The position numbers are program-made. A DNA stretch of 32,179 nucleotides from a virus (taxonomy: Duplodnaviria; Heunggongvirae; Uroviricota; Caudoviricetes), in the IMG/VR virus record IMGVR_UViG_2939521961_000007. One strand, 5' to 3'. This document shows positions 9,001-15,000 of this stretch, piece by piece (position 1 is the first letter of the stretch; every line of letters starts with the position of its first letter).

Positions 9001-12000
9001 ATGTTAGTAACGGCCTGAGCGTTCCGCCAGTCCGGCGACAACTGGCGGCCCCCAAACGCCCGTCGGGGCCAACGCCAATTGAGTTGCTGAAACAGGAATA
9101 TGAACGCCGGAAAGCGGCTGGTTTTGTTTGAGTTGAGAAGTGATTTTTTACCGGGAGGAAATTTATGGAGACTGTTTTTGACGCACTGAAAGCGATGGGA
9201 AAAGCCACGTCGGTAGAGCTGGCTGCGCGACTTGATATCAGTCGTGAAGAAGTACTGAACGAGCTGTGGGAACTGAAAAAGGCTGGCTTCGTTGATAAAA
9301 GCGTATACACCTGGCGTGTGGCTGATAACAACGTTCAGCAGGAACAGCCAGCGCCAGAAGAAACCACCACGGCAACAGAAGCGAAAATCTCAGAGTGCGA
9401 TTTAACCGCGACGATTGAACAACGCGGACCACAAACGGCGGATGAACTGGCTACGCTGTTCGGTACAACATCCCGCAAAGTTGCTTCAACGCTGGCAATG
9501 GCAATCAGCAAAGGTCGTCTGATTCGCGTAAACCAGAACGGTAAAATTCGTTACTGCATACCAGGTGATAATTTACCAGCAGAGCCGAAAGTTGAATCGG
9601 TAGCGGAAACCGATGGTAAAGCCTTTCCTCAGCCAGCCGGTGTTCGTTACCGGTACAGAAAGATGCAACACAGGAAGATATTAAAACAGAAACTGTGGCG
9701 GACATTGTGCAGTCGCTGCCATCGTTTACTGCAACGCGAGAAGATGATTTGATTTTGCCATCGCTGCATATGGCAAATCGCGAACTGCGTAGGGCGAAGA
9801 ATCATGTCCAGAAGTGGGAGCGAGTCTGCGCCGCGCTGCGGGAGCTGAACAAGCACCGGGATATGGTTGCCGGGATTTGTCGGAAGTCCGGGCAATGAGC
9901 GGATGGTGCAGGCCTGAAATCATGATACTAACAATGAAGGTAAAATGCATCGGCAGTCTGATTGGTCGTAGTGAGGCGGCGGTCAGGATGAAAGCCCAGG
10001 TTAAGGGAATAAGCCTGATTCTGCGGGGTGATTTTCACCAGTCAACAAAATATCCGTAGCGCGATAACGGTCAAAAATTATGGCGCTGACACTTTTGTGC
10101 CACTGGAGATGACTGTACCTAAGTTCAGGGGAGAAGAACACGTCCGGTGGGATGGTCGGGCCAGATTTAAAGGGCAGGTCATGGCTCCAGCCTGTACGCT
10201 GGCAATGGAGGCTGCCTGGCGGGAAATTGATATGGGAACCACGCCACTCAGGGATTTACTGCCGGTCCAGAGAATAAATTCCTGTTACGGTTACACCACT
10301 GTGATCTTGCAAGTGCAGGAAAGTAGGTCTACACGGTAACGCGAGTGCGTGTAACTTTTGATGTCATTCCCGTAGAAACACCGGACAAATTTTCGCTGAC
10401 AGGTCATGCAGAAGGTATAAATCTGCAGATTATGGACAATTACGGATATCCGGCAAGAGCCGGAAAAAGCATGCCGCCTCTAATTCTCAGTGGAAGATGG
10501 ACTTGATTATACTCATTGCATTGTCAGAAATAGTTATCCATTAAAGGCTGGCTATTCCAAACAGGATGTTGATTACAAAAATGTAATCAACATGTAAGGT
10601 TTATACTCTTCAATATGCGTATAATTTTCCTTATTTTGTTGACTTTAAATAACAAGCTATGCACGAGGTAAAGTCGGATAAGTTTATCTGGATGTAATAT
10701 ATATTATTTGTAGTGTTTATAACTTTATTTCATGATAACCAATAAAAGGAGTTTTTTATGAGGAACATAATGGCAGGTTTTTTAATATTCCTGTCTTCTG
10801 CTGCTTATGCTGATATCAATCTGTATGGTCCTGGTGGCCCGCATACAGCCTTGCTTGATGCAGCCAAACTTTATGCCGAAAAAACAGGTATTATAGTGAA
10901 CGTTCATTACGGCCCACAGAACAAATGGAATGAAGATGCCAAAAAAAATGCAGATATCTTGTTTGGCGCATCAGAACAATCTGCTCTGGCTATCATTCGG
11001 GACCATAAAGACAGCTTCAGTGAAAAAGATATTCAGCCTCTTTATCTGCGAAAAAGTATTTTACTGGTAAAGAAAGGTAATCCTAAAAATATCCGGAGTA
11101 TTGACGACCTGACCAGACCTGGGATTGGCGTAATTGTTAATGATGGTGGTGGTACCAGTAATACATCAGGCACTGGCGTCTGGGAAGATATTGCCGGACG
11201 TAAAGGGAATATAGAAACTGTCGCCGCAATCCGAAAAAATATTATTTTATATGCGCCCAATAGCGGAACTGCACGTAAGGCTCTTGAGAATCAGCCTGGA
11301 GCAGATGTCTGGATAACCTGGGCTGACTGGGCAGCCAGTAATCCAGAAATTGGTGATGTCGTGGAAATAGCGCCAGACTACGTGATATGGCGTGATATGA
11401 ACATTACAGTACGTCAGGATGCAAATGATGAAACCCGTCGATTTGCAGAATGGCTACAAACCGATGAAGCGGCGCCTGCATTCAAAAAATATGGCTGGAC
11501 CAGGAAAGGCACTTGACATCCTCGTCCTTCAGGACGTGGATTCTTTTTCCGGATGCCGCGCCAGCGGCATGTAGGGGCAGCTCACAAAACGGAAAAAATT
11601 GTACGCTAAGCCTCGCCAGGTGAACTGAATTCATTCCGATATGGGAATTCCCATATCGGGCGAAAACGGTTTGCTGTAACGGCAGAGTTAAGTAGGATTG
11701 CTGCGGGTGCTTGAGGCTATCTGCCTCGGGCATGAACACCAACGGCAGATAGATAAAAGCCCCACCCGACTATAAATCGAAGTGAGGCCCCTATATGCTC
11801 GTCACATATAGATTGCCTCTTACGGACCGAAAGGTCAAGGAGAAGCAGGCTATGAAGCAGCAAAAGGCGATGTTAATCGCCCTGATCGTCATCTGTTTAA
11901 CCGTCATAGTGACGGCACTGGTAACGAGGAAAGACCTCTGCGAGGTACGAATCCGAACCGGCCAGACGGAGGTCGCTGTCTTCACAGCTTACGAACCTGA

Positions 12001-15000
12001 GGAGTAAGAGACCAGGCGGGGGAGAAATCCCTCGCCACCTCTGATGTGTCAGGCATCCTCAACGCACCCGCACTTAACCCGCTTCGGCGGGTTTTTGTTT
12101 TTATTTTCAACGCGTTTGAAGTTCCGGACGGCGCCGGAATAGAATCAAAAATACTTAAGTAGCGCGCAGGGAGAAGAGGGATGGACCCCGAACAGGGGAG
12201 TGCTATTTATCTGGAAGGATTCTGTTGATGAGAATCGAAGAATTACGTGAAATTTTTAGTGAAGATGGCCTCTATACTGTGCGCGTTGAGAAGGGCGCTA
12301 TTGTCAGCCACTGCCGTATTAAATGTTTACAGTCTCAACAAAGGAAGAGTGGAGCTGCGTTAATTCATTTTGTGGATGGGCTTGTGACGGATGGTTTTAT
12401 TTTGCGTGCAAATGAATTTGTCACATCGTTGCCGTCTCTGAAAGAAGCTGGGATTAAGGCTGGTTTTTCTGCTTTTGAAGATTAGTGAATTCATCTACAA
12501 TTCAGCGCAGGGCTGAACCCCTGTTGAGTAACACTGTGCCACCGGAGAAAGCCGATGGCGCAAAATTCCAGACTACACAATTCTGATAATTCAGCCGTCT
12601 TTGCCAGCAGGCACGGGCGGCGTTCTCATGCATTCAAATCTGACTGGTTCCGGCACGCCCCATGCACTGAAGAACAGGCCGAATGGCTGATTCAGAACTA
12701 CCGCAGACGTGGGTATGAGTTTAGGAAAGCCCTCAGCCTCGATTATCGTCACTGGATAATCTACGTCAGGCTGCCGTACTCCGAGCGCCCACCGCGTCCG
12801 TCCCGCACATTCCAGCAACGCATCTGGAGGTAACGTGCGGGTATTACTTCGACCTGTTCCGGTACCGGAACTTGGGTTGGTGGTCCTTAAACCAGGCCGT
12901 GAATCCATGCAGGTATTCCATAACCCTCGAGTGCTTGTGGAGCCGGAACCGAAAAGCATGCGCGGTCTGCCGTCCGGCATCGTCCCTGCCGTTCGCCAGC
13001 CGCTGGCGGAGGATAAATCATTACTGCCGTTTTTCAGCAATGAGCGTGTGATTCGTGCTGTTGGTGGCGCTGGTGCACTGTCTGACTGGCTGTTGCGTCA
13101 TGTCAAATCCTGCCAGTGGCCTCATGGTGACTATCATCACAGTGAAACCGTTATTCACCGTTATGGTACCGGCGCAATGGTGTTGTGCTGGCACTGCGAC
13201 AACCAGCTGCGTGACCAGACATCCGAATCACTCGAGCAACTTGCTCATCAAAACCTGTCAGCATGGATGATTGACGTCATCGGTCACGCAATAAGCGGTA
13301 CGCAGGAGCGTGAATTATCTCTGGCTGAATTATCCTGGTGGGCGGTCCGCAATCAGGTGGCGGACGCGCTACCGGAAGCGGTATTACGTCGTTCGCTGGG
13401 GTTGCGTGCGGAAAAAATCCGCTCAATGTACCGTGAAAGCGACATCGTACCGGGAGAGCAGACCGCCACCATCATACTGAAGCAGCGCACAAAAAATCTT
13501 GCGCCGCTGCCTCACGCCCACCAGCAAAACCCGCCACAGGAAAAGACGGTGGTCAGCATTGCCGTTGATCCGGAGTCACCGGCTCAGTATCTCCAGCGCC
13601 AGAAACCACAACGGGAAGAGATGCCTGTATACACGCGCTGGGTAAAAACGCAGAAATGCATGACGTGCGGTAATCAGGCAGATGATCCGCATCACATCAT
13701 TGGTCATGGACTGGGAGGGATGGGAACAAAGGCTGATGATTTGTTTGTTATTCCGCTGTGCCGTAAATGCCATAGCGAACTACACGCCGGGGTAAAAGAT
13801 TTTGAAGAAAAACACGGCAGCCAGCTGTTGTTGCTGATTCGTTTTTTAATGCACGCGAGAAATTCGGGTGTCCTGAAGTGGAAAGCATGAATGACTGAAC
13901 GGATAGAATTTGTTTTGCCTTACCCGCCGACGGTGAATACCTACTGGCGACGTCATGGCAATACGTATTTCATCTCGGAAGCCGGAAAGCGTTATCGCCG
14001 TGATGTGGCGCTAATTGTTCGCCAGCAGCGGCTGAAATTAAACCTGTCCGGAAGGCTGGTGATAAAGATTATTGCAGAGCCACCGGATAAGCGCCGTCGT
14101 GACCTGGACAATATCCTGAAAGCACCACTGGATGTGCTGACGCATGCCGGACTTCTCATAGACGACGAGCAGTTTGATGAAATCAATATTGTGCGCGGTC
14201 AGCTCGTTCCTGGTGGGCGGCTGGGGATAAAAATCACAGAACTGGAGTGCGCATGAATAACCACTATTTACAGTTTGTGCGTGAGCAGCTCATTATCGCC
14301 ACCGCTGATTTGAGTGGGGCAACAAAAGGTCAGCTTGAAGCCTGGCAGGAGAATGCCATGTTCGATACAGGGCGTTACAGGCGAAAAAAAATCCGGTACC
14401 GCGATGAAGTGACTGGAAAAATGATAACGCGGGATAATCCACCAATCCCGGGAAAGCAATCGCTGGCGAAGGTGACGTCAATTCCTCTGGTCAGTCCGGT
14501 TGAGTTTTCGACATCATCGTGGCGGCGGGCTGTTCTGTCTCTTGAAGAACATCATAAAGCCTGGTTGTTGTGGTGTTACAGCGGGAGTATTTGTTGGGAA
14601 TATCAGATCGCGATAACACAGTGGGCGTGGAATGAATTTAATACTCAATCCGGTACCAGAAAAATTGCTGGGAAAACGCAGGAACGCCTGAAAAAATTAA
14701 TCTGGCTGGCGGCGCAGGCAGTAAAAGCAGAACTTTTTGGTGGGGAAGGTTATGAATATCAGGAGCTGGCATTACTGGCGGGAGTGACAACTAAAAACTG
14801 GTCCAAAACATTTACTCGTCACTGGGTTGCAATGAAACACATTTTTCACCGACTGGATAGTGAGGCTTTATTATTTGTAATGAGAACACGTTCAAAACAA
14901 AAGGCGGCATTTTCAAAGCAAAGTGTTGCAAAAGTAGATTGAAAGGCATATATTTCATGCAAATCTGATATTTTGCCGATTTTGTACGTGATGGCAAAAG

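Follow-up and report, generated by a model that had tools for sequence, protein, structure and literature searches.

In the hok/mok/sok locus (parB) of plasmid R1, two conformations of the mRNA are known, a closed form in which the translational activator element (tac) pairs with the fold-back inhibition element (fbi) and an open form in which tac pairs with the upstream complementary box (ucb) (PMC9841398). The R1 mok ATG at position 116 lies 58 nt upstream of the hok ATG at 174, so that the two genes are frame-shifted relative to each other, and what counts is translation of mok as far as the start of hok, rather than the Mok product (PMC9841398). An enrichment of Hok genes in prophages has been reported (bioRxiv 10.1101/2025.08.07.668861). 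In prophage Sp5, hokW-sokW is a type I toxin-antitoxin (TA) system, dependent on RNase III and Hfq, which assists phage release: after mitomycin C treatment Sok goes down while HokW goes up, and deletion of the locus halves phage release (PMC8621323). HokW and R1 Hok are only 44% identical (PMC8621323). Here we describe a locus of this family in a 32,179-nt stretch of viral DNA (Caudoviricetes; IMG/VR record IMGVR_UViG_2939521961_000007), referred to below as the window. Positions 11671-12103 of the window very probably hold a complete hok/mok/sok type I TA module of the hokD/hokW type, carried by a lambdoid prophage at the ompW site of Escherichia coli that produce Shiga toxin (STEC) and working like R1 hok/sok.

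The toxin gene was examined through its protein product. The translation of the open reading frame (ORF), MKQQKAMLIALIVICLTVIVTALVTRKDLCEVRIRTGQTEVAVFTAYEPEE, belongs to the Hok/Gef family, small toxins of about 50 aa with an N-terminal hydrophobic helix: it matches Pfam HOK_GEF (PF01848) with E=1.2e-23 and 82.9 bits (cutoff 22) and PHROG 251 'MokW-like host killing' with E=2.8e-33. Moreover, it is identical to K-12 HokD (RelF) at 51/51 residues, which places it in the hokD allele group. The Hok subfamily model of NCBIfam, a hidden Markov model, scored 48.5, below its cutoff of 73, so the name hokD is not supplied by that model and the NCBIfam matches are uninformative for naming. The homology scores of the toxin and of the leader described below are far beyond chance. 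A first-pass annotation of this DNA, made from the sequence by eye, had recognised a canonical Hok toxin followed by a strong terminator, with a lack of Hok homology on alignment named as the finding that would overturn it. The toxin is borne out by the above scores and by the full identity to HokD, and the terminator by a 7-bp hairpin followed by a T-run, found again with the same sequence in K-12 hokD. The toxic controls characterised in earlier work are listed as including the HokD coding sequence (bioRxiv 10.1101/2025.08.07.668861), and a toxic product may be expected from the window gene as well. Within the coding sequence, the Tyr47 codon TAC stands in a TACG context (11990-11993), and a second TACGAA is found at 11947-11952, across the Val32 and Arg33 codons.

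Upstream of hok, the ATG at 11795 aligns with the annotated ATG of K-12 mokC and with that of Sp5 mokW. It precedes the hok ATG at 11852 by 57 nt (19 codons), is in the same frame and opens a 70-aa ORF that has its own Shine-Dalgarno (SD) sequence and reads through the hok start, as expected of mok. The SD motif, GAGG, is also the one of R1 mok (PMC9841398). The extension of Hok by 19 residues noted at first was thus correct, while its description as unusual was not. Indeed, K-12 mokC (16751..16960) and hokC (16751..16903) are annotated with a common stop codon and starts 57 nt apart, and the same offset and common stop codon are annotated for mokW/hokW of VT2-Sakai/Sp5. Furthermore, among 43 loci, collected with a single Hok protein as query against one-genome-per-species contigs and hence biased to HokC/HokD relatives, 29 have mok and hok starts 57 nt apart, in 8 the distance is 58 nt and in 2 it is 56 nt; the other 4 lack a mok start. 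An in-frame mok is therefore the rule within the HokC/HokD clade (the hokC/hokD/hokW branch). The 58-nt offset is also found in K-12 mokB/hokB and in a Rac-type phage, and K-12 mokA, which is cut by the insertion sequence (IS) IS150, is annotated with the hokA stop codon too.

Two indels of one base each, GATT(A)GCC and AAGG(T)CAAGG, account for the different offsets; they are located at the edges of the -10 and -35 hexamers of the putative Sok promoter (11810-11838). Between the two indels the Mok peptide is frame-shifted from one type to another (RLPLTDRKVK vs RLASYVPKGK) while the nucleotides are conserved. Hence the Mok extension is constrained as RNA or promoter and not as protein, which fits the R1 result on mok translation.

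The leader between the mRNA start and the hok AUG was identified with Rfam. The model RF01794 ('sok') matches 11705-11854 (+) over its full length, with 103.9 bits against a gathering threshold of 59 (E=8.6e-23), which reveals the conserved structured leader of hok mRNAs. Taken at its name, this match would be the antitoxin gene, a possibility that was rejected: on K-12 the model falls on the hokC/mokC strand (602-754 (-) of locus L002), ends on the hokC AUG and lies opposite the annotated sokC. RF01794 models the sense-strand hok leader from +1 to the hok AUG, not the antisense RNA, and a 'sok antitoxin' match therefore gives both the wrong strand and the wrong extent for the antitoxin RNA.

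The antisense RNA itself was placed by alignment with the annotated K-12 sokC. The 5' tail of this putative Sok spans mok codons 1-3, with the mok ATG, and the mok SD, and is followed by a hairpin and a U-run; the position of its 5' end has the same geometry as in Sp5 sokW, whose 5' end sits 9 nt inside mokW. The candidate RNA folds accordingly into a single-stranded 5' tail, a hairpin and a U-run at -22.6 kcal/mol (z = -4.1). The hairpin is conserved in 15 homologues with compensatory changes at 5 of its 14 pairs. Read on the sense strand, its invariant G-U pairs would become A-C mismatches, an indication that selection acts on the antisense RNA. The putative promoter ends 7 nt before the Sok start predicted here, and K-12 sokC has TTGACC-17-CACTCT in the same place. 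Double-stranded mokC-sokC RNA has been captured in vivo in K-12 (PMC7373196), so activity is possible for a promoter of this Sok type. At the level of sequence, the window thus has over the mok start a candidate antisense RNA with its own putative promoter and terminator hairpin. The first-pass annotation expected Sok and mok around 11780-11860; the mok ATG does lie there, but Sok runs to ~11749 and the span was too narrow.

The predicted structure of the hok/mok mRNA was next considered. Its putative -10 hexamer aligns with TATAAT of K-12 hokC and with TAGAAT of Sp5 hokW and mEp460. The transcript 11705-12101 has a minimum free energy (MFE) of -166.3 kcal/mol (z = -7.7 vs shuffles), and in this fold, besides the pairing of tac with fbi, 11759-11769 (ucb) pairs with the mok SD region at 11777-11788. 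The hok SD, AAGGAG at 11837-11842, would be partly held in a local hairpin; both this motif and GCCTCTTAC are near-invariant in the family alignment. When the 3' end is removed (folds ending at 12030-12055), the 5' end 11705-11712 re-pairs with 11757-11763. The predicted folds thus contain a long-range tac/fbi pairing, replaced by a tac/ucb pairing after 3' truncation, and reproduce the closed and open forms of R1. A stem-loop predicted in both full-length and truncated folds would probably be the protective 3' end of the processed mRNA, like that of R1 Tr-hok (PMC9841398).

The tac/fbi pairing is seen well beyond the window. At ~40 homologous loci, a stretch complementary to the first 13 nt lies 45-56 nt beyond the stop codon, and the two strands of the pairing change together (GGGUGC/GCACCC vs GGGCGC/GCGCCC, GAGGC/CCUC vs GAGAC/UCUC, and a hokB variant). 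In K-12 hokC with its IS186 insert the fbi partner is gone. Another inverted repeat of the region, I3 (11567-11578 with 11787-11798), was judged a chance match. The coordinates of all elements are given in Table 1.

Table 1. Elements of the hok/mok/sok locus, in positions of the window.
Feature	Position	Strand	Description
Putative hok/mok promoter	11671-11698	+	-35 TTGCTG (11671-11676), 16-nt spacer, -10 TAGGAT (11693-11698)
Predicted full-length hok/mok mRNA, ~397 nt	11705-12101	+	RF01794 match starts at 11705; terminator ends at ~12101-12103
tac element GGGUGCUUGAGG	11705-11716	+	5' mRNA end; pairs with 12057-12069 in full-length MFE fold; conserved, covaries with fbi
tac stem hairpin	11706-11763	+	Arms 11706-11725/11744-11763; inverted repeat I1; includes ucb (~11757-11769)
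Putative Sok antisense RNA, ~55 nt	11803 to ~11749	-	Ends transferred from annotated K-12 sokC by alignment
mok Shine-Dalgarno GAGG	11784-11787	+	7 nt before mok ATG; invariant column in 45-locus leader alignment
mok reading frame	11795-12007	+	70 codons, in frame with hok, common stop; from ORF list
Putative Sok promoter	11810-11838	-	-35 TTGACC (11838-11833), 17-nt spacer, -10 CAATCT (11815-11810)
Hairpin partly sequestering hok SD	11814-11847	+	Full-length MFE fold: UCUU 11818-11821 pairs with GAGA 11840-11843
hok toxin gene (hokD allele)	11852-12007	+	51 aa; Pfam HOK_GEF; identity to K-12 HokD; RefSeq hokD
3' stem-loop	11996-12053	+	Predicted in full-length and truncated folds
fbi element CCUCAACGCACCC	12057-12069	+	Pairs with 11705-11716 in MFE fold; 49 nt after stop
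Intrinsic terminator of hok mRNA	12076-12103	+	Terminator scan: stem 12076-12093, 7 bp, 5 G-C, loop 4, then TTTTTGTTTTT

Compared with its described relatives, the locus shares something with each of them. All the elements of R1 hok/mok/sok have a match in the window, that is tac, fbi, ucb, the downstream complementary box (dcb), the GAGG SD of mok, a 70-codon mok, Sok lying over the mok start and an mRNA of ~400 nt (PMC9841398). The differences are that R1 mok is frame-shifted with its 58-nt offset and that parB is a plasmid stabilisation locus, whereas the window module is borne by a prophage. Closer still is hokW/mokW/sokW of Sp5 (VT2-Sakai) and 933W, likewise a locus of lambdoid prophages, in which a 70-aa MokW is in frame with a 51-aa HokW at 57 nt as in the window, the two toxins being over 90% identical. 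The Sp5 locus lies near one end of its prophage, in contrast to the position between paa and rem seen here. K-12 hokC (gef)/mokC/sokC has in common with the window the 57-nt in-frame mok, the short Sok type and the promoter type TTGACC-17-CAnTCT, and the Mok extensions are similar (MLNTCRVPLTDRKVKEKRA in K-12 mokC vs MLVTYRLPLTDRKVKEKQA in the window). However, its toxin is 82% identical, its fbi was lost to IS186, and it belongs to the core chromosome and not to a prophage.

The first-pass annotation had proposed an alignment to hokD and hokE; K-12 hokD lies in the cryptic prophage Qin. K-12 hokD encodes the identical 51-aa toxin, and its DNA is near-identical to the window from the hok SD through the coding sequence, fbi and terminator. 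The two also have a common synteny (hokD, a rem homologue, DUF968/ydfU and Q), with DicF and dicB in the same prophage. In contrast, K-12 differs in everything upstream of the hok SD, having the 3' end of relE where the window has the leader. It thereby lacks the hok promoter, tac, ucb, the start of mok and Sok together with its promoter, and the upstream neighbour is relBE instead of paa. Judging from the alignments, the window locus is the intact form of which K-12 hokD is a remnant.

Chromosomal hok loci are often interrupted, which had been named at first as a possible objection. K-12 hokA, hokC and hokE adjoin IS150 or IS186. We searched the window locus for the lesions of these three, of K-12 hokD and of L012 and L033, truncated loci of other genomes, and none of them is present; no IS element or truncation was found. 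The assignment to the hok/sok type holds on protein, RNA-model, structural and comparative evidence. The span first given for it, 11780-12100, covers a real locus but misses the 5' third of it; the putative hok promoter, tac with its stem, ucb and Sok's 3' half lie at 11671-11780, and the span is to be widened to ~11671-12103. Of 5426 complete E. coli genomes, 617 carry the variant segment with Sok and the mok start in full, mostly as a single copy. The locus is a textbook module and already known, with the label hokD or gef in the annotation of hundreds of STEC genomes and in phage records. It carries little weight as a discovery, and its use is rather to show cleanly what the truncated K-12 hokD looks like when complete.

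By homology with R1 hok/sok and Sp5 hokW/sokW, the module could work as follows. A weak promoter would give a stable mRNA of ~397 nt, the 5' tac of which is clamped to the 3' fbi. The clamped mRNA would be silent, ucb sequestering the mok SD and the local hairpin partly sequestering the hok SD. Slow trimming of the 3' end would then remove fbi, upon which tac would pair with ucb and free the mok translation initiation region. As long as Sok is made, it would pair with the mok start region and RNase III would destroy the duplex. Upon depletion of Sok, either through loss of the element or through prophage induction, mok would be translated, the hok start opened and the 51-aa membrane toxin produced. 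By analogy with hokW-sokW, the module may affect the timing of lysis or the maintenance of a virulence-associated prophage (paa, nleA).

Several observations weigh against a working module in the window, whose activity is presumed by analogy with these relatives. The hok -10 reads TAGGAT against TAGAAT in relatives, and the Sok -10, CAATCT, is weak (2/6). A sigma-70 consensus scan of 11500-12250 detected neither promoter, so both were placed by homology, the Sok promoter, for which an antisense promoter prediction had been advised, with sokC as guide. Furthermore, the folds are predictions, and in the truncated ones some of the mok SD remains base-paired, with a downstream box, which has been described for R1 too. 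Finally, chromosomal hokA, hokB and hokC with intact elements reportedly give no post-segregational killing (work cited in bioRxiv 10.1101/2025.08.07.668861), and therefore the integrity of a sequence is no guarantee of activity. Taken to their end, such points would make the locus a silent relic of intact sequence, in which the toxin is too low or too locked to kill, to stabilise the prophage or to affect lysis, and which hitch-hikes in the prophage. The weakness of both promoters and the G found in the hok -10 at the place of an A would agree with this. However, all regulatory elements are kept, with compensatory covariation, the uninterrupted ORF encodes a protein identical to HokD, the coding sequence of which is reportedly toxic, the related prophage locus hokW-sokW is active (PMC8621323), and the IS insertions and truncations of the known relics are absent. 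We consider a silent relic improbable, and the complete module working like R1 hok/sok is retained.

The in-frame ATG raises another question, namely whether the locus encodes a single 70-aa Hok from 11795 without separate mok/hok coupling, in an architecture unlike that of canonical hok/sok. Since this ATG is in frame and has a GAGG SD 7 nt upstream, ribosomes starting at 11795 must make a 70-aa protein containing all of Hok. Nevertheless, the hok ATG at 11852 keeps its conserved AAGGAG SD and its sequestering hairpin, and the same in-frame layout is annotated as two genes in mokC/hokC and mokW/hokW. Moreover, the offset varies among close relatives (56, 57 or 58 nt), the peptide between the indels shifts frame from type to type over conserved nucleotides, and R1 needs mok to be translated as far as the hok start and not its product (PMC9841398). 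Given these points, we attach hardly any credence to a single long Hok. Under the preferred reading, a coupled mok and hok, mok being in frame with hok implies that mok translation itself must give a 70-aa N-terminally extended Hok. That this Mok-Hok protein is a second functional toxin isoform and, together with this, that the 75-nt Sok/mok segment is an exchangeable specificity cassette is a speculative extension, which we consider unlikely.

The segment in question makes the locus a mosaic. The central 75 nt (11762-11836), comprising the Sok body, the mok SD and N-terminus and the putative Sok promoter, are 52-55% identical to those of Sp5 hokW, mEp460 and Rac, while the flanks are 93-99% identical to these three; for Sp5 hokW taken separately the values are 52% for the centre and 93-97% for the flanks. 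The window centre is without a 21-nt insert of those prophage hok loci, and pieces of it find their best matches in loci of the hokC type and in one locus each from Photorhabdus and Citrobacter. In a 41-sequence alignment, mok codons 2-4 (11798-11806), which face the 5' bases of Sok, rank with the most variable positions of the transcribed region, while the SD, the ATG and GCCTCTTAC beside them are invariant. Variable Sok-facing codons and a divergent centre would fit a diversification of antisense specificity among co-resident hok loci. The sequences of the window Sok and of SokW differ, and the two would probably not cross-react. If the cassette proposal were true, it could give each co-resident prophage hok locus an antitoxin that does not cross-react with the others.

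The source of the window is an ompW-site lambdoid prophage of STEC (O26, O103, O111, O145, O157). Over the 601 bases around the locus, identity to many complete STEC genomes (O26, O103, O111, O145 and others) is 100%, and in E. coli O26 RM10386 the same region lies inside a lambdoid prophage adjoining ompW, in the order integrase, exonuclease, dicB, cI/cro-like genes, replication genes, paa, hokD, a small ORF, DUF968, rusA, Q, tRNAs, lysis genes and nleA. For the identical DNA, RefSeq gives only 'hokD: type I toxin-antitoxin system toxin HokD', the hokD coding sequence alone being marked while the mok frame and the Sok RNA are unannotated, and PPompW phage records with identical DNA carry the label 'gef: phage maintenance protein'. 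The hok locus is positioned in the nin region of the prophage, between paa and rem. Downstream of hok, the ORF 12225-12485 (+) is a Rem homologue with 72% identity to K-12 Rem (PHROG 340, function unknown), and the window therefore keeps the Qin-like order hokD-rem-ydfU-Q.

Upstream of hok, the gene at 10758-11516 (+) encodes the AcfC-family adhesin Paa (Pfam SBP_bac_11), a virulence moron, and is followed by a terminator-like hairpin at 11523-11546; in K-12 Qin, relBE occupies the equivalent site upstream of hokD. Between paa and hok, a perfect 24-bp palindrome, CCGATATGGGAATTCCCATATCGG, unique within the window, is located at 11636-11659, 12 nt upstream of the putative hok -35. A search of all fetched hok loci found it only in the identical STEC prophage, and it therefore does not belong to the architecture shared by the hok family; it may show where the paa cassette joins hok or be a protein-binding site.

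Further downstream, ARAGORN called three tRNAs at 15138-15378 (+), with anticodon CAT at 15138-15213, 'Lys TTT' at 15215-15290 and Arg TCT at 15304-15378. Only the first (tRNA-Ile) and the last are called by Rfam at the gathering threshold and by RefSeq in the identical prophage, and the middle one (15215-15290) may be a degenerate tRNA. Two small RNAs (sRNAs) were also matched in the window: a full-length DicF at 4537-4588 (-), with 76.7 bits, upstream of dicB, and, downstream of the tRNA cluster, STnc100 at 16157-16329 (+), with 100.8 bits. The two sRNAs are typical of lambdoid prophages of the Qin-like and Stx-like kinds.

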